The notes: generated from the sequence alone by a model not told the origin. A stretch of DNA of 64,000 nt from Candidatus Peregrinibacteria bacterium CG_4_9_14_0_2_um_filter_41_14 (GCA_002788755.1 PFRW01000063.1:13339-77338), one strand, 5' to 3'; counted from the first letter of the stretch, positions 8,688-60,102 are shown. A program made the numbers and translations.

Positions 8688-9941
8688 TTACCTCATTGAA
8701 CCACTCTCAGTAGTCGCTGCCTCCTCTGCTGCCGCCTCTGTGGCCGCCTCCTGCAATAATTGCTTCTGCTGATCCTGAACATCTATAGGTGTAAAGAAAG
8801 TCGGATTAACAGCATAAAGTATTATTCCGGATAAAAATAAGACAGCCAAAGCAATAATCGACTGTACAATTCGTCCTTTCGCCTCATCAATTGCTTCGCC
8901 ACCGGACGCACTAATTTGAATCCCACTGACCATAATCACTAAAACGGCAATTACACCAACAATTCCCGCCGCCCACCTGTAAATGAAACCAATATAACTC
9001 TTTAGCAAATTAACGCCACTATCTGCCCAAATCGCTTGAACTTTATCGCAATAAACAACTGTTGGCAAAACACCGGTCTCATTACCGGCAACATTTAATT
9101 TATAACTACCATTATCCTGTCTAACTAAAGTCACCGAACTCAAATTACTTCGAGTTGGCACGCACTTCTCCACAATATAAGATTCACAGTCCGTAGGTCT
9201 AATCGCATAGTGATTTGGCGCTCCGGGCACAGGCTGTAATTCTCCTTTACTATCACGCACAAAATTAAGTTCACAAATTTTTGCACGATTATACACATTT
9301 TCATTACTAATGGGCTCTTCCAAAATCGTCACTAAATTACCCAGCAAAATCGCATCCTGCAATTGAGCAAACTCGGTATCTGTACGCTCACAAATCGATG
9401 TATCCGCACTTGTTAAGTTCACACAACTACTCCCCATCGTACCAAGCAATGTTTTTTTCTGTGCTGCTTGCAGGTTTTGTTGTTCAATCACTAAATCATC
9501 AACCGCATCACAGTCAGCTTTCATCGAATTAATATTACGATTTGCAAGAAATTTATTAATCGCAGCAATCTTATCTTGTAAAACTTTTTTTTCATCCACT
9601 TTCTCTGCTGCAAGCTTATTCAATTCAGTCTCTAATACTGCTTGTGTTCTTGGCCCATCAAAGATCGCGTTCGCTAACCTATCGCATGTAGGCTTTGAAC
9701 AATAATTACTAATTGACGTCACCGTTTTTCTGGCAAGCTTTGCACTCTCATCATCGTCACAAAAAGTTTTGATAGCTACTAGTAAATCAGCTTTATTCCC
9801 TGCCTCAATATCATTTATCAACTCATCAACATTACCATTAACTCCTGTTGACAGTGAATCATTATTCTGTGCCAAAACAGGCAAAAATGCATAAGGCAGA
9901 CATAACACCAACAACATCAAAATCAATAATATTTTTTTCAT
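8688..9941 (-). CDS. Cys-rich secreted protein with C-terminal VirB2/TrbC-like two-helix module, paralogue 4
   Basis: 417 aa. Signal peptide, a roughly 300-aa ectodomain with many Cys, then TM - SGGEAIDEAKGR - TM and an Ala/Glu/Thr-rich tail. Confidence 0.5.
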   Translation of the reverse strand: MKKILLILMLLVLCLPYAFLPVLAQNNDSLSTGVNGNVDELINDIEAGNKADLLVAIKTFCDDDESAKLARKTVTSISNYCSKPTCDRLANAIFDGPRTQAVLETELNKLAAEKVDEKKVLQDKIAAINKFLANRNINSMKADCDAVDDLVIEQQNLQAAQKKTLLGTMGSSCVNLTSADTSICERTDTEFAQLQDAILLGNLVTILEEPISNENVYNRAKICELNFVRDSKGELQPVPGAPNHYAIRPTDCESYIVEKCVPTRSNLSSVTLVRQDNGSYKLNVAGNETGVLPTVVYCDKVQAIWADSGVNLLKSYIGFIYRWAAGIVGVIAVLVIMVSGIQISASGGEAIDEAKGRIVQSIIALAVLFLSGIILYAVNPTFFTPIDVQDQQKQLLQEAATEAAAEEAATTESGSMR

Positions 9942-9942
9942 T

Positions 9943-10734
9943 TTAATAAATCAAAGCTTGAACAAATGTAACAATCATATAAGCAAAAATAACAATTACC
10001 ATTCCGGTTAACCCCAACTTAATGACGTCCTTACCTTTACTAAGCTGTTCATCATCACCGGCAGCCGTTAATAAGAAATATGCACCAATTACAATTACAA
10101 CTAAAGCAGCCAGCCCAATCATATAAACCAATAAGCCCATCATTCGCACAATAAAATCCAAAACCGGATTACCACTGGTTCCTTTAAAAAAACCGACCTG
10201 ACCAGGAGCTGTTAAAGTATCGACAGCAAAAAATTCGCTACTATTAGGTACATCACCAGTCGTATCACGCTGACCAATATAATAGCCATATTTACTATTA
10301 GCGTCCTCGGGCACATCTGTATTTACAGCACCACCTTTAGCTATAGCCAAATCCACTAACTTCTTTTCGCTATTCGCTCCAACATCATCAAACTCAAAGT
10401 TAGAATTGAAATCGTAATAAAAATACTTTTTATAATCCTCTAAAGCCTTTCCTTGCAGATATTCACCACAAACGGCACATTCCAAACGTAAATCTGACCT
10501 TGCAAGATTTGCCGGTTTAGTTTCTGGACAAAGTTTTACATATTTATCACATTGATACTTAATTTTATCCGCACCAATCTGTGCATTATTTATAGACTCT
10601 GCTTCGGTAAAACTCATTTCTTCATCTGCAGCGTCCTGTGCCATCGCCACTCCCTGTACTAAACCCGCACATAAAACTAGAGCAATTAATCCGACACCCA
10701 ATTTTTGTAAGTAGCTAATTAAACGCATAAGCAT
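9943..10734 (-). CDS. Cys-containing secreted protein with C-terminal VirB2/TrbC-like two-helix module, paralogue 5
   Basis: 263 aa. Hydrophobic N-terminus, Cys cluster (YQCDKYVKLCPE...LECAVCGEY), then the C-terminal module TM - AAGDDEQLSKGK - TM. Confidence 0.5.
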   Translation of the reverse strand: MLMRLISYLQKLGVGLIALVLCAGLVQGVAMAQDAADEEMSFTEAESINNAQIGADKIKYQCDKYVKLCPETKPANLARSDLRLECAVCGEYLQGKALEDYKKYFYYDFNSNFEFDDVGANSEKKLVDLAIAKGGAVNTDVPEDANSKYGYYIGQRDTTGDVPNSSEFFAVDTLTAPGQVGFFKGTSGNPVLDFIVRMMGLLVYMIGLAALVVIVIGAYFLLTAAGDDEQLSKGKDVIKLGLTGMVIVIFAYMIVTFVQALIY

Positions 10735-53456: not shown

Positions 53457-55040
53457 ATGTTAAAACGACTATTTACTACCTTGTTTACAGCCTCCATCGC
53501 CTTTACCTTTATTTTTCCAGGTCTTGTTGCTATGGCCCAAACCATCGACCAACCCCCAACCGCCGAAAAAGAACTCGCAGACGAAATTTACTTTGTAAAA
53601 GCAAATATTCCGGTTCCGGTAATCACCAATCGGCCATCTGTGTTTTCTGCAAGCCCTCAATTTGACATTACTAAAGTCCAATCAATTGAATATATTTGGA
53701 ATTTTGGCGACGGCAACCGTGACAAAGGCAAAGAAGTCGTTCACACCTACAACGAACCGGGCAACTACACCCTCGGTCTCGAAACTCAAATTACCGAAAA
53801 TAACAAAAACAAAGTAATAGTAAGCGAAAGTGAACAAATCTTTGTCGCTCAAAAATTTGCCTTACTAATTTCCGATCGTGTTGACCTTCAAGAAAAAATT
53901 GGTAGCTTCGTCAAATTAGCCCGCGAAGAAAATATCGCCCTACAATTAGTAGAAAGTTACAACAGCCAATCCACCTTCTTATCTGAAGAAGTTTTGGCCA
54001 AAAAATTAAACGAACTCAACAACCTCATTCAAAAAACAGACACAATCTTAGTATGGACCCAAACCGGTACCGGCCTTAACGCCTTAACTCGCTACCTCCA
54101 AACCAAACCGGAAGCCAGCCTTCAAAACACAACAATTATCCTCCTAACGGATGAACTAACTAATTTACAAAGCGCCAAACGCCAATACCAACAAATTCGC
54201 CCGCGCGAAATCATCGTTGTCCGAGAATCAGGCATCAGCCTACCATTTTTAGAAAGTCAAAATATTGAAGAGTACAAACAAAAACTAACCAAAGGCGGCT
54301 ACGATTTTGAAATTATCAATGAACGTAGCAACGAAATTAAACCATGGCGCATATTAAGCTACACACTTAATTTCCTCACCGAAAAAGGCATTCCCGACAA
54401 CACCCTAATCCTAATTTTACTATTACCGGTTATCGCTACCGTTATTGCGTTTTTAAAACAAGTTGTGGGGCTTTCAACCTTAGGCTTATACACACCAACA
54501 ATTATCACCCTCACATTCCTAATTTTAGGTATTAAATTTGGCGTCGTCATTTTGTTCTTTATTACCATTGTTAGCTTAGTTAGCCATAAAATCCTCAAAA
54601 AATTCCGGCTCTTATACGTGCCCAAAATGGCGATTGTAATCACAATTGTATCACTTACAATTTTCATTCTCTTTTCATTAGCCGTTCTTTGGAACATTTT
54701 AGATGCTGAATTTATTTCTTTTGCCATCTTCCCAACTGTTGTTATGGGAACTTTAGTCGAAAAAGTTGTCACTGCCAACTCTACCAAAAGCTTTGGTAAA
54801 TCTTTACTAACAATTCTTGGCGTCTTAGTTGTGAGTGGTATTGCTTACATCATTGTGGGCGGTCCAATCGATTTCCTCTTCATTAACTTCCGTTTCGATT
54901 TTATTAGAAACTTTATTGCCAACTATCCCGAAGCAATCATTTTATTTGTAATTATTAATACGCTACTAGGACGATGGACCGGTCTCCGTTTAACAGAAGT
55001 CATCCATTTTCAAGAAATAATGTATAACACCGAAGAATAG
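53457..55040 (+). CDS. Secreted PKD-domain region fused to a C-terminal 7-TM module (7TM of the type that partners ATP-grasp ligases)
   Basis: 527 aa. Signal peptide and a PKD-like motif (IWNFGDGN...VVHTYNEPGNYTLGLE). A roughly 180-aa alpha/beta-looking region follows. About seven hydrophobic helices span roughly aa 305 to 527 and end in GRWTGLRLTEVIHFQE. Confidence 0.6.
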   Translation: MLKRLFTTLFTASIAFTFIFPGLVAMAQTIDQPPTAEKELADEIYFVKANIPVPVITNRPSVFSASPQFDITKVQSIEYIWNFGDGNRDKGKEVVHTYNEPGNYTLGLETQITENNKNKVIVSESEQIFVAQKFALLISDRVDLQEKIGSFVKLAREENIALQLVESYNSQSTFLSEEVLAKKLNELNNLIQKTDTILVWTQTGTGLNALTRYLQTKPEASLQNTTIILLTDELTNLQSAKRQYQQIRPREIIVVRESGISLPFLESQNIEEYKQKLTKGGYDFEIINERSNEIKPWRILSYTLNFLTEKGIPDNTLILILLLPVIATVIAFLKQVVGLSTLGLYTPTIITLTFLILGIKFGVVILFFITIVSLVSHKILKKFRLLYVPKMAIVITIVSLTIFILFSLAVLWNILDAEFISFAIFPTVVMGTLVEKVVTANSTKSFGKSLLTILGVLVVSGIAYIIVGGPIDFLFINFRFDFIRNFIANYPEAIILFVIINTLLGRWTGLRLTEVIHFQEIMYNTEE

Positions 55041-55041
55041 T

Positions 55042-57420
55042 ATGGGCTTCTTTTCCAAAGGCATCTTAGGCATTAACGCAAGAAATCTTCTTTACATCAA
55101 ACCTTTTAACAAACGTAAAGATATTCTGTTTGCCGATGATAAACTTAAAACAAAACATTATCTAGCCGCCCGCGGCGTTAATGTACCAAAACTATACGGC
55201 GTTATCCGCAATAAGGAAGAATTAGATAAATTTGACTTTAACAATCTCCCCAACAATTTTGTGCTTAAACCAAACCTGGGATCTGGCGGTGCCGGTATTA
55301 TTCCAATCGTGGAACATAGCAACAACACCTACATTACCAGCAGCGGCAAAATTTTAAGCCAAGAAGTCATCAAAGAACACATTATTGACATTATCGATGG
55401 CCGCTTTGCCGTCAACAACAATCCCGACAGTGCCTTTTTTGAACAACTATTAATTACTCACGAAAGCGTAGCCCCTTACACATACAAGGGCCTACCGGAT
55501 TTACGAATTGTCGTCTTCAACCTAATTCCCGTCATGGCCATGTTACGTTTACCAACCAGAGAATCGGACGGTCGCGCCAATTTACAACAAGGTGCCGTTG
55601 GCGTTGGTCTTGATTTAGCCAAAGGCGAAACAACCTACATCACCCAAAACTATAAAATCATTCCCGAAATACCAGACGTTGGCCCCATCAAAATCAAAAT
55701 ACCATTCTGGGATCAAATCCTTGAGATGTCCGTCAAAACACAGTTAATCAGTAACTTGGGTTACCTTGCTGTAGATATTGCCTTAGATCAGACCTCAGGC
55801 CCCGTCTTACTAGAAATAAACGCCCGCGCCGGTCTTAAAGTGCAAATTGCCAATTTAGCAGGACTAAAAAAACGACTCGAAAGAATTAAAGGTATTAAAG
55901 TCACAACTCCCGAAAAAGGCATTCGTATTGCCAAAGACATGTTTGGTAACGTCACCGAAAAAGCCATTAGCAATGTTAGCGGTAAAACTATCATTAGTGA
56001 CCAAGAAAATATCGAAATCCTAAATGAAAAACACAATATTGTTGCCACCGCCAAAATCAACCTTAATCAAGAAAAAACGACAATTAATGAAGCCCTCCAA
56101 AAACAAATTAAAAATTTCGCTCCCGGCAAAAAAATTAAAATCATTTTAGGCAAAGAAAGAATTACCACCCTAGCCACAGTTAAAGAAAACCAAATCGAAA
56201 ACATCATCATTGGCCGCCGCGACCTTGGTAATTTCTTAATCGATCCCACTAAACGCAAAGACAAAATTGCGCCACTACCCAAGCCGGAATCAAAAAAAGA
56301 ACCGATTCCATACTTTATCCCAAAAACAAACTACGGCGAAGTTGACCATCAACTATACGAATTAGACAGAAAAGTTAGACTTGTATCACACCTTGCCCCA
56401 ACCAACCTTAAAGAAGAACTTGAAAAATTCAGCAAAGACAAAACCTACAACCCACAATTTATCTACAAAGAGCCAAAAATTGATATCCTCAAAATTAAGC
56501 AAGAAATTGCCGACATTCAAGTGAGTGACAGCGCCCTCGGCCAAGTTTTTGGTAACAAAAAAGAAGAACTACTGAACCGCTTCAAACTAATCGAAGCCCG
56601 CGGCACCGATCAATTTACCGCCATATCTCACTTAAACTTTGCCAAACCATCGCCAGAACTTGTCCAGCGTGGATTCCAAATGCTGGAAGAAAGCTACAAA
56701 CATCACGACATCCACCCTGCAACCATCACCGCTAAAAAAGCTAAAGAAATTTTTGAAGAAACCCTAGCCTCATACGGTCTCACCCAATGGAACATTAAAT
56801 TTAAACCCAACATGCACGGCAACTGCAGTGTTTCCAAGGGTAACGCCATCTTTATTCGCACCGGTGCAAAATTCTCCGAACAAAAACTCAAAAAACTAAT
56901 CGCTCACGAAATCGAAACCCACATCCTCACCAACGAAAACGGCCGCAAACAACCATACCGCATTTTTCAAGTTGGAACCGCTAACTACCTCAAAACACAA
57001 GAAGGACTTGCCGTATACAACCAAGAAAACGCCGTTAATGCCAAATACAACTTTTGGGGCGTTGGCACCTTCCTTGCCACCTACTTAGCCGAACACCACT
57101 CCTTTAGCGAAACCTATGAGCGATTAATTAAACTAGGTATTGGCAAAAAAAGAGCACTCACCATGACGGCCAAAACAAAAAGGGGGATTGAAGACACCAG
57201 CCAACCGGGCGCCTTTACCAAAGGCTACATGTACTTTATGGGAGCAGTCCAAATTGAAGAATTTGTTTTAGCCGGCGGCAATTTAGCCGACCTCTACGTA
57301 GGCAAAATCGACATCGAATCCATTGACTTAATCAACACAATCAGCAATCTTAACAAACCATACTATTTACCACATTGGTATAAAGACTTTAAAGGCAATG
57401 AACAAACTCAATCTCAATAG
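55042..57420 (+). CDS. Fusion protein: RimK-related (alpha-L-glutamate-ligase-like) ATP-grasp domain + QEGLA-motif/HExxxH (DUF1704, MATCAP-type) metallopeptidase domain
   Basis: 792 aa. The N-terminal ~300 aa carry GILGINARNLLYI, DDKLKTKHYL, VLKPNLGSGGAGI, DLRIVVFN and LEINARAGL. A Lys-rich linker follows. The C-terminal ~370 aa carry HEIETH (nt 56905-56922) and QEGLA (nt 56998-57012). The start lies 1 nt after the stop of the 7TM gene. Confidence 0.7.
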   Translation: MGFFSKGILGINARNLLYIKPFNKRKDILFADDKLKTKHYLAARGVNVPKLYGVIRNKEELDKFDFNNLPNNFVLKPNLGSGGAGIIPIVEHSNNTYITSSGKILSQEVIKEHIIDIIDGRFAVNNNPDSAFFEQLLITHESVAPYTYKGLPDLRIVVFNLIPVMAMLRLPTRESDGRANLQQGAVGVGLDLAKGETTYITQNYKIIPEIPDVGPIKIKIPFWDQILEMSVKTQLISNLGYLAVDIALDQTSGPVLLEINARAGLKVQIANLAGLKKRLERIKGIKVTTPEKGIRIAKDMFGNVTEKAISNVSGKTIISDQENIEILNEKHNIVATAKINLNQEKTTINEALQKQIKNFAPGKKIKIILGKERITTLATVKENQIENIIIGRRDLGNFLIDPTKRKDKIAPLPKPESKKEPIPYFIPKTNYGEVDHQLYELDRKVRLVSHLAPTNLKEELEKFSKDKTYNPQFIYKEPKIDILKIKQEIADIQVSDSALGQVFGNKKEELLNRFKLIEARGTDQFTAISHLNFAKPSPELVQRGFQMLEESYKHHDIHPATITAKKAKEIFEETLASYGLTQWNIKFKPNMHGNCSVSKGNAIFIRTGAKFSEQKLKKLIAHEIETHILTNENGRKQPYRIFQVGTANYLKTQEGLAVYNQENAVNAKYNFWGVGTFLATYLAEHHSFSETYERLIKLGIGKKRALTMTAKTKRGIEDTSQPGAFTKGYMYFMGAVQIEEFVLAGGNLADLYVGKIDIESIDLINTISNLNKPYYLPHWYKDFKGNEQTQSQ

Positions 57421-58420
57421 CTACAACTTTGACTTACCGACAACCTCCATCGCGCAATCGGCAGTAACGCCGCGGGATCATAGTAAATTACTTATCTACA
57501 ACCGCAAAACCGACACAATTAAGCACGAGCATTTTTATAATATCCTCAATTACATACCTAAAAATGCCATTATTGTCTTTAACAATACCAAAGTTACCCC
57601 CGCACGCCTCTTTGGCAAAATCGATCAAAAAGAAGTCGAAATCCTCCTCACCAATCCATTAGGTAAAAACAAACAAGCATTAGTTAAACCAGGCAAAAAA
57701 TTTACTCTAGAAACAGAAATCAAATTTCCCGCAGGCCTCACCGCCAAAGTTACAAAAATCAACACAGACGGCAGCCGTGAACTCAACTTTACACCAGATC
57801 TCACACTTCAATATTTACATAAATACGGTGAACTCCCTTTACCACCATATATCAAAACCACCTACAACCAAGAAGTGGCAAACCGCTATCAAACCATTTA
57901 CGCCCAAACCGAAGGCAGCATTGCCGCCCCCACAGCCGGACTCCACTTTACCCCCGAGCTTTTAGACAAACTCAAACAAAAATTCACAGTCGTTAATGTC
58001 ACCCTAAATGTTGGCCTCGGCACTTTTTCACCCATTAGAGTAGAAAGCATCGACCAACACGAAATGCATTTTGAAACATACTCCTTAACAGAAGAAGCCG
58101 CCAAAGCCCTTAATCAAGCTCAAAAAAATCAACAACCAATTATAACCGTTGGCACCACAAGTACACGCGTTTTAGAAGCACAATTAAAAGATAATGACCA
58201 ATTTACCGCCGGCACTTTTAGCACGGACATATTTATTTACCCCGGGTATAAATTTAAAGCGATCACCGGACAAATCACCAACTTCCATCTCCCCAAAAGC
58301 TCCCTATTTATGTTGATCTCCGCTTTTTTAGGCACCGAAAAGGCTAAACAAATTTATCAAGAAGCAGTTGATCAACAATACCGCTTTTACAGCTTTGGTG
58401 ACGCCTGTCTTTTTCTTTAA
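57398..58420 (+). CDS. queA: S-adenosylmethionine:tRNA ribosyltransferase-isomerase
   Basis: 340 aa. YNFDLP N-terminus, LPLPPYI, APTAGLHFT, and TVGTTSTRVLE. Overlaps the upstream gene by 23 nt. Confidence 0.9.
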   Translation: MNKLNLNSYNFDLPTTSIAQSAVTPRDHSKLLIYNRKTDTIKHEHFYNILNYIPKNAIIVFNNTKVTPARLFGKIDQKEVEILLTNPLGKNKQALVKPGKKFTLETEIKFPAGLTAKVTKINTDGSRELNFTPDLTLQYLHKYGELPLPPYIKTTYNQEVANRYQTIYAQTEGSIAAPTAGLHFTPELLDKLKQKFTVVNVTLNVGLGTFSPIRVESIDQHEMHFETYSLTEEAAKALNQAQKNQQPIITVGTTSTRVLEAQLKDNDQFTAGTFSTDIFIYPGYKFKAITGQITNFHLPKSSLFMLISAFLGTEKAKQIYQEAVDQQYRFYSFGDACLFL

Positions 58421-59622
58421 ACCTTTATATCCGCTTCTGCTTCATTCCAAGCTGTATCAACCAACAAACCTTGTTGATCTGCCCCCATCGGCACGCCGGA
58501 ATAACGCAAAACAAGCAAAGTAATATCGTCCAACTGTGGCTCCTCTTTAACAAACCCTCTAAAGTCTTCCGAAATTGCTTCAAACAATTTTTTAGACTCA
58601 CCCAAAGACCCATTTTTTGCAACCGACATTTTTAAGCGTTCCAAAGTATACATTTCCCCCAACTTATTGCGTGCCTCGGGAATACCATCCGTATAAAGTA
58701 CAATTGTATCTTCCTTATTTAAAGGAATTAATTTTTCTAGTGCTAACCCTTCAACATCGTCCGTCATTCCCAAAGCAATACCGCCGGTTGGGATTGCCTC
58801 GCAAATTCCTTCCTTAGCTCGATAAATCAAAATATGCTCATGACCGGCACCCGTATAATACATTTTTTCTTCTTCCGGATTCCAACGTAAAGCAATTGTT
58901 GTCATAAACATTGTTGAATTCACTCTTGGCTTTAAGGTTCGATTCGTTTTTACAATCCATTCCGAAGTTGAATTCACCTCATCTAAATAAACCGCCAACA
59001 AAGTATTTACCATCATCATAATTAATCCGGCCGGCGCCCCATGGCCGGTAACATCACCTAAATAGATATAAGTTTGGTTACCCTTTTTCATAAAACCAAA
59101 ACTGTCACCGCCTACCTCTTCTGCCGGACGCGTTCTCGCTGCTACATCTAATTTATCGACCAAAGGAATAGTAGCCGGTAAAACGCTACGTTGAATATCT
59201 GCAGCTAAATCCAACTCTGACAACATTCGGCTGCCTTCTTTTAAATCGTGTGACACTGCTTCCAAATTTTTAGTAACATGATTAAAAAACTGAGCCAACA
59301 AGCCAAATTCATCTCTTCTTAATAAGACAATTTTTTTATATTTCTGCCCGGCTAATAATGCCTCGATCTGACTAATAATTTTACCAAACACACGATATAT
59401 TCGAAGATAATAAACCAAAAGTACCGCAGCATTAGCAATTAAAATCAATCCTAACCAAAACCAAACCGTTGTGACTTTAAAATAAGCTAAAGCGCCGGCA
59501 GCAACAGTGGCTCCCAAAGCAATCAAAATCAAATAAACAAAAGTTTTTTGGCTACGAATCAACATAAATGCAAAAATTACTGAACAGGATCTGCCAAAGC
59601 AGCAGCTAAATCCGGGTAACAC
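58417..59622 (-). CDS. Membrane-bound HAMP-linked PP2C (SpoIIE/RsbU-type) serine phosphatase
   Basis: 401 aa. Two TM helices and a HAMP-like linker. PPM motifs GGDSFGF, GDVTGHGAPAGLIMMM, LYTDGIPEA and DDITLLVL. The likely true start is the internal Met (MLIRSQ) at about 59565. Confidence 0.8.
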   Translation of the reverse strand: MLPGFSCCFGRSCSVIFAFMLIRSQKTFVYLILIALGATVAAGALAYFKVTTVWFWLGLILIANAAVLLVYYLRIYRVFGKIISQIEALLAGQKYKKIVLLRRDEFGLLAQFFNHVTKNLEAVSHDLKEGSRMLSELDLAADIQRSVLPATIPLVDKLDVAARTRPAEEVGGDSFGFMKKGNQTYIYLGDVTGHGAPAGLIMMMVNTLLAVYLDEVNSTSEWIVKTNRTLKPRVNSTMFMTTIALRWNPEEEKMYYTGAGHEHILIYRAKEGICEAIPTGGIALGMTDDVEGLALEKLIPLNKEDTIVLYTDGIPEARNKLGEMYTLERLKMSVAKNGSLGESKKLFEAISEDFRGFVKEEPQLDDITLLVLRYSGVPMGADQQGLLVDTAWNEAEADIKV

Positions 59623-59936
59623 TTAATTAACTGACTAAGACCGATTAAATTAAACACATCTTCTACTTTTGGTTGTACATTAATAATTCTCAAAGTTTGC
59701 TCTTTCTTTTTTAGCTTATAAAAAAGAGAAACAATATAACCAACCCCTTCCGAATTAATAAAATCAAAATACATAAGGTCAAAAATCAAAACTTGCTTTT
59801 GATACTCTTCTACAAACTTAGTTAGTACGTCTCTTACTTGATCTAAATTAGACTTATCCATTTCACCTTTAAACTGAACTATTTGATAACCATCTGTACC
59901 TTCTGCCGCTAAAACATTTAAATCTAAATGTGCCAT
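59577..59936 (-). CDS. STAS-domain anti-sigma-factor antagonist (SpoIIAA/RsbV-like)
   Basis: Start re-set to the ATG at 59936 (MAHLDLN). FDFINSEGVGYI contains the conserved phosphorylatable Ser of anti-anti-sigma factors. Confidence 0.72.
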   Translation of the reverse strand: MAHLDLNVLAAEGTDGYQIVQFKGEMDKSNLDQVRDVLTKFVEEYQKQVLIFDLMYFDFINSEGVGYIVSLFYKLKKKEQTLRIINVQPKVEDVFNLIGLSQLIKCYPDLAAALADPVQ

Positions 59937-60102
59937 AACAATTTCAATTAAACTATTCCCCCCAATTATAGAAAAGATCCGTAAAATTAACAGACAAACT
60001 CCCCACATCACTAATTTAACCTTGCAATAACAGCAAATAATTGACTAGCAGTATATGGTATTTAAATAATTATGTTACACTTTATTTCCATAAAATTAAA
60101 TT

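Follow-up and report, generated by a model that had tools for sequence, protein, structure and literature searches.

We analyzed a 64,000-nucleotide (nt) stretch of DNA (the window) from the groundwater bacterium Candidatus Peregrinibacteria bacterium CG_4_9_14_0_2_um_filter_41_14 (GCA_002788755.1, PFRW01000063.1:13339-77338), in which two adjacent open reading frames (ORFs) on the plus strand encode a seven-transmembrane (7TM) protein and a multidomain enzyme. ORF-A (53457..55040, 527 aa) comprises a signal peptide or anchor, a PKD domain, an α/β ectodomain, a 7TM_transglut module and a cytoplasmic tail that ends with two Glu residues (-EE), while ORF-B (55042..57420, 792 aa) comprises an ATP-grasp ligase, a degenerate retropepsin-like module and a MATCAP-type zinc carboxypeptidase. 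Our main finding is that MATCAP occurs together with an oligo-Glu tail of the 7TM partner and a decayed retropepsin site across the lineages in which relatives of this pair are found. This suggests a bacterial version of the add-and-remove tail code of microtubules, which has been undescribed so far. The ligase and the peptidase are likely an antagonistic pair that works with the 7TM partner on acidic C-terminal chemistry. It is also quite possible, although we would stop short of calling it probable, that the 7TM partner's own tail is the acceptor in a writer/eraser cycle, in which MATCAP has replaced an ancestral retropepsin eraser.

The C-terminal Glu-Glu of the 7TM Protein

A tblastn scan of GTDB species genomes (E ≤ 1e-3) identified 418 genomes encoding a relative, and the neighborhood counts given here were obtained from the 80 loci returned. 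All 80 loci contained a full-length fusion, and almost all of them were labeled as Peregrinibacteria, Peribacteria or Gracilibacteria. The 7TM gene was directly upstream of the fusion gene and on the same strand in each of the 76 loci with readable upstream DNA, which demonstrates that the gene pair described in an initial annotation of the window is conserved in its relatives. The gap between the two genes was less than 10 nt, or the genes overlapped, in 43 of 74 related loci.

The cytoplasmic tail of ORF-A, TGLRLTEVIHFQEIMYNTEE (residues 508-527, 54978..55037, plus strand), ends with the Glu-Glu codons at 55032-55037 and is the proposed acceptor. The C-terminus of the 7TM protein was -EE in 117 of 120 database homologues, with the other three ending with -xE, and in 72 of 76 locus copies. 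As background, -EE terminated 4 of 635 further ORFs in these loci that were at least 150 aa long (0.6%), no other conserved family shared this end, and ORF-A had the sole -EE-type end among the 187 ORFs of the window. The genetically encoded terminal Glu run had 2, 3 or 4 residues in these homologues, with positions -3 and -4 being variable, and 2 to 5 residues across all relatives; -EE persisted in sequences that had diverged to about 30% identity, between flanking residues that changed freely. The juxtamembrane part of the tail was also conserved, with the motif G[RK]WTGLR..E..RFR preceding the terminal Glu-Glu. The charges of the ORF-A loops obey the positive-inside rule, which places the tail in the cytoplasm.

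A role of GAAGAA as the Shine-Dalgarno site of ORF-B was ruled out as the cause of -EE conservation. The -EE end was kept at all gap lengths (11/11 at 10-30 nt, 9/9 at 30-100 nt and 11/11 at 100-1693 nt; 31/31 overall), and GAA and GAG interchanged synonymously in the terminal Glu codons; the conservation is therefore not a ribosome-binding artifact. The initial annotation had reported no obvious substrate gene nearby. The 7TM partner itself, with a conserved cytoplasmic -EE that co-varies with MATCAP, revises that statement.

Some 7TM genes with acidic tails were found apart from the enzymes. In one clade of PKD-7TM proteins (L130, L136, L137, L138, L142, and L145), the tails read -KKSEEE or -KKTEEE, and no ligase, retropepsin or MATCAP was detected within up to 8 kb of these genes. 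Either the enzymes are encoded elsewhere in this clade or the acidic tail has another role there. UGA recoding was ruled out as the cause of the missing ligase in this clade, as the standard genetic code was confirmed. Among divergent representatives with -EE tails, four contigs (L095, L096, L097, and L099) end about 50-300 nt past the GAA-rich end of the 7TM gene, by chance or because of a recurrent assembly break, and two more (L098 and L100) run out before any MATCAP gene could appear and were not evaluable; the metagenome scan described below made up for these six.

Covariation of MATCAP, Tail Class, and Retropepsin Motif

Among 1.84 billion representatives, 1188 were related to the 7TM and tail region, and their tails split into an acidic class and a basic/neutral class. 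The genomic context was fetched via the 7TM protein (12 look-ups and one metagenome scan), which gave a sample unbiased by the fusion query, and the loci were annotated with hidden Markov models (HMMs) built from our own alignments. MATCAP was present in all 36 evaluable loci with an -EE tail, in which it was either fused (30 loci) or encoded by a separate gene after the ligase-retropepsin gene (6 loci). Among the evaluable loci with a non-acidic tail, MATCAP was present in 1 and absent from 12. When the 7TM sequences were clustered at 60% identity, the numbers of clusters with and without MATCAP were 7 and 0 for the -EE tails and 1 and 7 for the non-acidic tails (Fisher p = 0.0014). Single-linkage clustering at 45-50% was too coarse for this association, because nearly all 7TM sequences merged.

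Viewed from the other side, the -EE tail was found in 0 of 14 MATCAP-less loci, where two -xE cases ended with -NE. The retropepsin motif D[TS]GA was intact in all 14 of these loci (13 within the ligase gene and 1 in a separate ORF); where MATCAP was present and the tail was acidic, it was found in 0 of 112 ligases. In a neighbor-joining (NJ) tree of the ligase domain, which carries no support values, MATCAP plus an acidic tail appeared at three positions: a large clade of fused proteins; L177, beside the MATCAP-less L170; and the stand-alone-MATCAP loci L148, L152 and L160, beside the MATCAP-less L168. The stand-alone MATCAPs were intact, with HE[IV]GTH plus EEGLA. This joint change of all three characters is most simply read as replacement of an aspartic endopeptidase by a zinc carboxypeptidase in the same pathway, in the context of which the tail turned acidic. 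The initial annotation had proposed an add/remove cycle on a C-terminal tail; the comparative data strengthen this proposal, and the cycle itself remains a predicted one.

The initial annotation had also described the ligase and the QEGLA protein as separate neighboring genes in proteobacteria. The RloC-type ligases of Legionella and Aeromonas were found beside RloA and RloB instead, with no QEGLA protein, and the proteobacterial QEGLA proteins in the loci that we read were stand-alone, fused to an N-formylglutamate amidohydrolase (FGase) domain or beside a GshB-type ATP-grasp gene. The arrangement of ligase and MATCAP as separate neighbors occurs inside Patescibacteria (L088 and the L148 group). 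The QEGLA/MATCAP protein of Vibrio sp. HDW18 (L081, 6113-8104) has an extra N-terminal FGase domain. That of Aminobacter pSR7 (L082, 5340-9084) has an extra N-terminal region, and its gene lies between an FGase gene and a GshB-type ATP-grasp gene, all on one strand. The Aminobacter locus is a second, different association of a ligase with MATCAP, which also points to Glu-related chemistry. In some MATCAP-less Patescibacteria (L087, 1814-6800; L091, 2825-6178), the genes for PKD-7TM and ligase-retropepsin are followed by two or three more ATP-grasp genes (RimK-/GSH-S-like), which suggests multi-ligase peptide assembly in those lineages.

Domain Organization of the Gene Pair

The ORF coordinates and the 1-nt spacer reported in the initial annotation were confirmed from the sequence, as were the places of its motifs VLKPN (55261-55275), LEINARAG (55810-55833), HEIETH (56905-56922), and QEGLA (56998-57012). 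The junction of the two genes is TAG-T-ATG (55038..55044, plus strand), with the TAG stop codon of ORF-A at 55038-55040 and the ATG of ORF-B at 55042, which is consistent with translational coupling of ORF-A and ORF-B; the initial annotation was right to propose it. ORF-A was 100% identical to COV81_05065, and ORF-B to COV81_05070, of a Candidatus Peregrinibacteria metagenome-assembled genome of the CG11_big_fil_rev series. An assembly or frameshift artifact is excluded, because the identical fusion protein is found on 20 contigs from several independent sources and full-length fusions form more than 120 clusters at 90% identity.

Pfam and NCBIfam profiles matched every domain named in the initial annotation. 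ORF-A begins with a signal peptide or N-terminal membrane anchor, MLKRLFTTLFTASIAFTFIFPGLVAMA (residues 1-27, 53457..53537, plus strand, as are all the domains given below), which was recognized from its sequence, a hydrophobic segment at residues 12-23 and a helix at residues 2-19 in the AlphaFold2 (AF2) model. This is followed by an extracytoplasmic PKD β-sandwich (residues 47-131, 53595..53849; PF18911, 4e-11; PF00801, 3e-9). A Rossmann-like α/β ectodomain comes next (residues 133-290, 53853..54326), and then a 7TM module of the 7TM_transglut/RloB type (residues 299-507, 54351..54977), which was delimited by PF14402, NF052267, the AF2 helices and the positive-inside pattern. The match to PF14402 (1.9e-20, residues 315-521) scored 73.9 bits vs. 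a cut-off of 25, and that to the RloB profile NF052267 (1.1e-17) scored 64 bits against a cut-off of 900 and covered the 7TM part only (residues 300-522).

The AF2 model of ORF-A had a predicted local distance difference test (pLDDT) score of 81 and showed the anchor, the PKD domain, the Rossmann-like domain, the seven-helix bundle, and a short C-terminal helix plus the tail. In a Foldseek search with ORF-A, the PKD domain alone was recognized, with the PKD domains of the collagenases ColG and ColH as its top matches (TM-score 0.76 normalized to target); the α/β ectodomain and the 7TM bundle gave weak matches and no convincing relative. The region that the initial annotation had called α/β-looking adopts a confident Rossmann-like fold in the model (pLDDT about 90). 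It had no Pfam match, contains the invariant residues D140, S170, F174, E177, E178, W200, and R212, and occupies the place of the inactive transglutaminase domain of RloB.

ORF-B has no signal peptide and no transmembrane segment. Its ligase domain (residues 5-295, 55054..55926) is a RimK-related ATP-grasp domain of the RloC type (PF14397/TIGR02291-like). It matched ATPgrasp_ST (PF14397; 1.7e-62, 211.6 bits, cut-off 31.4) over residues 14-283 and over positions 2-277 of the 278 in the profile, and it was 37-40% identical to the RloC proteins of Legionella and Aeromonas and to a Halobacterium homologue. The scores of 279.7 bits for TIGR02291 (rimK_rel_E_lig, 2.4e-83) and 45.4 bits for the RimK family TIGR00768 were below the respective cut-offs of 314.2 and 143.4; no match to PF03133 (TTL/TTLL) was found at E ≤ 0.1. 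The carboxypeptidase domain (residues 432-785, 56335..57396; MATCAP/DUF1704/QEGLA) carries the zinc signature HEIETH (residues 622-627) and QEGLA (residues 653-657) and was identified by these motifs, PF08014 and Foldseek. It matched MATCAP (PF08014; 1.9e-46, 159.2 bits, cut-off 27) over residues 463-788 and TIGR02421 (QEGLA; 2.7e-50) with 171.7 bits, which is below the cut-off of 338.65. As the equivalog cut-offs were unreached, ORF-B is a relative and not a member of the proteobacterial TIGR02291 and TIGR02421 families.

An AF2 model of ORF-B built from 44 homologues had a mean pLDDT of 85, and Foldseek matched it to both folds predicted in the initial annotation. The best matches in the PDB were human MATCAP structures (7z5g/7z6s, E 3e-12), with TM-scores of 0.69-0.72 normalized to target and 20% identity over about 362 aligned columns. 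The next matches (E 1e-9 to 1e-7) were ArgX/LysX and RimK (E 2e-9), Ddl, and the cyanophycin synthetase CphA, and the ArgX/LysX matches include complexes with the carrier protein LysW (3vpb and 5k2m). Among 184 non-identical fusion proteins, the ATP-grasp residues K76, D245, E258, N260, and R262 and the MATCAP residues H622, E623, H627, E654, K713, R714, and Y731 were invariant. This invariance indicates that selection maintains both the ligase and the MATCAP domain as working enzymes. In place of QEGLA, 13 of the 184 fusions have EEGLA or EEGMA, and so do all six of the stand-alone MATCAP genes found in the short-7TM clade (L148, L150, L152, L154, L160, and L165); this is the "EEG" form of eukaryotic MATCAP/TMCP.

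In Halobacterium sp. DL1, 7TM_transglut (residues 51-243) and ATPgrasp_ST (residues 286-557) are fused in one polypeptide, in which no ectodomain, retropepsin or MATCAP was detected. Such a direct fusion, with a ligase of the family seen in ORF-B, implies that the ligase works with the 7TM module and faces the same membrane side as the end of that module. The fusion is an unannotated 584-aa ORF (L086, 4164-5918) on plasmid CP007061.1, an archaeal "Rosetta-stone" fusion.

The Middle Module of ORF-B

The ligase and peptidase that the initial annotation had identified in ORF-B stand, while its division of the protein into these two modules does not, as a third folded module lies between them at residues ~312-405 (55975..56256, plus strand). 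It is beta-rich in the AF2 model (pLDDT about 85). Where several homologues have AKIDTG and MATCAP-less relatives have AKIDTGA, ORF-B reads AKINLNQ (56050-56070). Nine of 26 members of the module family weakly matched Asp_protease_2/gag-asp_proteas (PF13650/PF13975) and one of the 26 matched PF05618, while Foldseek searches of BFVD returned phage and retroviral acid proteases, with a phage "acid protease" at rank 25 (TM-score 0.64 normalized to target). PF05618 ("RimB-like") also matches the same region of the orthologous two-domain ligases from other Patescibacteria (L087, L088, and L092-L094). Alignment of the family with the RloA family by hhalign spanned the whole domain, with AKID(TG) placed on AKLDTGA and IIGRRDL..FLIDPSKK on LLGREAI..IIDPSLKY; single sequences gave short and weak matches to RloA. 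Thus, the middle module is probably a RimB/RloA-like retropepsin domain, whose copy in the window is predicted to be catalytically dead because the catalytic Asp is lost (N-L-N).

Neighboring Genes

No conserved small substrate-like gene was found near the pair among related loci, and no other neighbor was invariant. The recurrent neighbors, named by eye from their sequences, reflect housekeeping synteny (MurC, CysS, YggT, MurJ, and RibD). Promoter and terminator scans gave counts at chance level. A queA-like gene, also identified by eye (57398-58420, plus strand), starts inside the end of ORF-B and overlaps it by 23 nt. This family was present in 55 of the 80 related loci; it is co-directional with the pair in the window and in L001 and mostly on the opposite strand elsewhere. 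The place of queA in the operon here therefore looks like a local rearrangement. Further downstream are, by eye, a 401-aa membrane-anchored ORF resembling PP2C/SpoIIE-type phosphatases (58417-59622, minus strand) and a 144-aa ORF resembling STAS anti-sigma antagonists (59577-60011, minus strand), which were found downstream of the pair in 57 of 80 and 34 of 80 loci, respectively, and always on the opposite strand to it in related loci. Two loci labeled as Nitrospirota (L020 and L029) have a typical Peregrinibacteria-type pair with the same flanking synteny and are probably mis-binned.

Proposed Mechanism and Alternative Explanations

In the mechanism that we propose, the ligase would dock on the cytoplasmic face of the 7TM protein and extend its -EE end with alpha-linked Glu, in the way that RimK modifies ribosomal protein S6, which likewise ends with -EE. 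Next, the MATCAP domain would trim the Glu residues one by one from the C-terminus, as TMCP/MATCAP do on tubulin tails, and the dead retropepsin module would be retained as a polyglutamate-binding or scaffolding element, with the carboxypeptidase having taken over in this clade the eraser role of an active retropepsin such as RimB or RloA. Tail length could thereby become an adjustable and regulated mark on the cytoplasmic side of a membrane protein that exposes its ectodomains to the environment. In its fullest form, the proposal is that Patescibacteria carry a self-contained "tail code," in which one polypeptide, with a writer, a dead retropepsin as the polyglutamate binder and a MATCAP eraser, sets the length of an oligo-Glu tail at the cytoplasmic end of a 7TM surface receptor/transporter. 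We offer this form as a tentative and rather speculative one.

Several observations weigh against the proposal that the tail is the acceptor. Both this acceptor and Glu as the amino acid added are inferred, the latter from family resemblance. With clustering at 55%, the association between MATCAP and tail class weakened to p = 0.015, and it may rest on few independent events, given that the NJ tree carries no support values. Two types of loci break the tail rule: L088, which looks like an intermediate, has an intact separate MATCAP (HEIAIH and GEGLA) together with the retropepsin motif AKIDTGA and a tail ending with -KKK, and L072, L075 and L078 have a fused intact MATCAP with tails ending with -FKNN or -FKNH. 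Twelve 7TM genes with -EE tails have no adjacent ligase. The tails of RloB are not acidic (...PGKDK in Aeromonas and ...AKARS in Legionella), those of the 7TM proteins of MATCAP-less Patescibacteria are basic, and the Halobacterium fusion has no free 7TM C-terminus. As the ancestral tails are non-acidic or not free, the ancestral ligase must have, or have had, another substrate. Finally, the retropepsin assignment of the window copy comes from the family and its orthologues, as the copy itself had no Pfam match; the family profile had no sequence match in the PDB, and the hhalign alignment with the RloA family (104 columns) had an E-value of 6.8e-4 and a probability of 27%.

The L072 group, the main exception to the tail rule, is nested in the fused-MATCAP clade. 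Its 7TM-only partner (about 9230-10001) is ~250 aa long and lacks a PKD or α/β ectodomain within its ORF, and its fusion keeps HEIETH or HEIDTH plus QEGLA.

The non-acidic ancestral tails and the Halobacterium fusion without a free tail keep alive a different explanation, because there the ligase needs another substrate. The ligase might make free poly-alpha-L-glutamate or a short peptide at the membrane, which the 7TM protein would export or display via its PKD and α/β ectodomains and which MATCAP, as the retropepsin had done earlier, would limit or recycle in the cytoplasm. In this model, which was proposed by analogy for RloBC, -EE would be a docking or autoinhibitory element, a product-like end that might occupy the binding site of the carboxypeptidase or of the retropepsin-like module. 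RimK does make free poly-alpha-Glu, which is stimulated by RimB (PMC11957791), and the antagonistic proteases of Pseudomonas aeruginosa are secreted (PMC12239564), so the product of RloBC must reach the periplasm. The covariation of MATCAP and -EE would be explained equally well if the tail is a pseudo-substrate. Both peptidase modules, however, are cytoplasmic and in the same chain as the ligase, with no signal peptide, which would create a futile cycle unless regulated; the variable number of encoded terminal Glu residues fits tail length as the variable more naturally; and nothing marks the 7TM bundle, which has no structural relative, as a channel. We therefore regard a free product as possible but on the unlikely side.

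The same covariation would also fit a ligase that adds a residue other than Glu to -EE and a MATCAP that removes it, either as a tyrosination-like switch or as LysW-like tethering of a compound to the tail Glu followed by release by the metallopeptidase. Detyrosinated alpha-tubulin also ends with -EE, MATCAP was defined as a tyrosine carboxypeptidase, and the NCBI label of the fusion homologues is "tyrosine/phenylalanine carboxypeptidase domain-containing." Moreover, attachment in the LysW complexes found among the best structural matches of the ligase is at the C-terminal Glu of LysW. By sequence, however, the ligase is nearest to the RimK-related "alpha-L-glutamate ligase-like" family (TIGR02291, 2.4e-83, vs. 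3e-5 for LysX), the retained RimB-like module is from a polyglutamate-specific family, and no LysW-type pathway enzymes are adjacent, which makes addition of a non-Glu residue unlikely.

It is still less probable that the enzyme modifies another protein, such as S6 or a protein with an acidic end, with the 7TM protein as its anchor or regulator and -EE conserved for an unrelated reason. RimK and RimB do act on RpsF, and the L072 group and L088 show that the enzymes occur without an acidic tail, but no rpsF or other gene with an acidic end was found in the window or conserved near the pair, and the covariation of MATCAP with -EE would be left unexplained. We consider it very improbable that the -EE tail, MATCAP and retropepsin decay merely mark a lineage independently of one another, having been passed down together from a common ancestor without any functional connection. 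Most MATCAP-positive loci are indeed in one large clade of the ligase tree, and the significance falls with coarser clustering. However, -EE is held to about 30% identity between freely changing flanks, is missing from all 14 MATCAP-less loci, and is also associated with MATCAP in L177 and in the short-7TM clade with stand-alone MATCAP, both of which have a sister that lacks MATCAP and has a non-acidic tail.

We know of no established function for bacterial MATCAP/DUF1704 proteins. At the locus described here, the enzymatic setting of a bacterial MATCAP is defined: it shares a polypeptide with a RimK-type ligase, and a candidate substrate lies 20 residues from the membrane. The three-way covariation is a natural experiment, which points to displacement of an aspartic endopeptidase by a zinc carboxypeptidase within one pathway. 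If the proposal that the 7TM tail is written and erased is true, it would represent the first case in which a prokaryotic membrane protein is reversibly polyglutamylated at its C-terminus, and the MATCAP family would have arisen in bacteria by erasing tails added by ATP-grasp enzymes, before its recruitment to tubulin in eukaryotes. The pair would then be a prokaryotic counterpart, and possibly an evolutionary source, of the writer/eraser logic of tubulin tails, and it would provide a concrete biochemical hypothesis for RloBC, which is clinically relevant and mechanistically opaque. The system is widespread in Peregrinibacteria and Gracilibacteria-type Patescibacteria. These bacteria live as episymbionts with small genomes, so a surface-linked module that they conserve is likely to be important to them.

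Comparison with Known Systems

Our literature search identified no paper on the fusion, on the function of bacterial MATCAP or on glutamylation of a bacterial membrane protein, and 7TM and DUF1704 proteins are unmentioned in the 2015 ATP-grasp paper of the Aravind group. The statement in the initial annotation that no such 7TM-ligase system had been characterized experimentally is outdated, as the homologous RloABC system of P. aeruginosa, in which RloA is a secreted retropepsin, RloB an inactive-transglutaminase-7TM protein and RloC an ATP-grasp protein, was characterized genetically in 2025, with its chemistry not known (PMC12239564). Loss of the three secreted RloA retropepsins was lethal in low-osmolarity medium, and deletion of rloB or rloC suppressed this lethality (PMC12239564); thus, the RloA proteases remove something that RloB and RloC make. 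Disruption of hm2192 of Shewanella, which encodes an RloB-type inactive-transglutaminase-7TM protein, led to hyper-vesiculation and altered vesicle size (PMC12096838), which is a second envelope-related phenotype of the family besides that of P. aeruginosa Rlo.

The pair shares with RloABC the 7TM family PF14402, the ligase family PF14397, the order of the 7TM and ligase genes, a probable module of the retropepsin family and the juxtamembrane motif G.[WY].G[LY][RK]L.E..RF. In contrast to RloB, the ectodomain of ORF-A consists of PKD and Rossmann-like domains and has no match to PF14400, which is found in the RloB of Legionella. In addition, the retropepsin-like domain is here an internal, cytoplasmic and apparently dead module of the ligase chain, MATCAP has been added and the 7TM tail ends with -EE. 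No separate secreted and active retropepsin of the RloA type (PF05618 plus signal peptide) was found near the pair in related loci.

The C-terminus of S6 is extended with Glu by RimK, and the added Glu is taken off by the retropepsin-like protease RimB, which requires a run of at least 5-6 Glu; RimB also stimulates RimK and can occur fused to it (PMC11957791). The common features would be an ATP-grasp alpha-L-glutamate ligase with a Glu-removing peptidase, an -EE acceptor and the possibility of a ligase-retropepsin fusion (RimBK of Desulfotalea), and the fold of the ORF-B ligase matches that of RimK. The ORF-B ligase, however, is outside the RimK family by HMM, and its order is ligase-retropepsin rather than the retropepsin-ligase order of RimBK. 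The proposed acceptor would be the tail of a membrane protein instead of S6, and the active eraser would be a zinc carboxypeptidase instead of an aspartic endopeptidase.

MATCAP and TMCP1-2 are HExxxH metallocarboxypeptidases, which are defined by the HExxxH zinc motif plus a third-ligand Glu in [QE]EG, remove C-terminal Tyr or Glu and shorten polyGlu on tubulin (PMC10499314). The peptidase of ORF-B is a true MATCAP homologue (HExxxH plus the [QE]EG Glu, TM-score 0.72). As on tubulin, an ATP-grasp writer would be opposed by a metallocarboxypeptidase eraser acting on an acidic tail, and the 7TM protein and detyrosinated alpha-tubulin both end with -EE. Unlike the tubulin cycle (TTL/TTLL vs. MATCAP/TMCP1-2, CCP, and VASH), the writer is from the RimK/RloC lineage and is in one polypeptide with the eraser, and the putative substrate is a 7TM membrane protein. 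The likeness to the tubulin cycle lies in function and in the peptidase alone.

The LysW/LysX-ArgX system offers another parallel, in which a RimK/LysX-type ATP-grasp enzyme has as its target the C-terminal Glu of a partner protein dedicated to it. The product is later released by the metallopeptidase LysK. The pair differs from this system in having no biosynthetic pathway genes adjacent, a membrane protein as the partner and a weak affinity to LysX. With the proteobacterial "flavohemoglobin expression-modulating QEGLA motif protein" (TIGR02421), ORF-B shares the MATCAP/DUF1704 domain and Glu-related partners; the proteobacterial proteins in the loci read differ from it in having neither an RloC-type ligase nor a 7TM protein as a neighbor. 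What is new here, therefore, is the addition of a MATCAP-type eraser and of a plausible membrane-protein tail substrate to a system of the RimK/RimB and RloABC kind.

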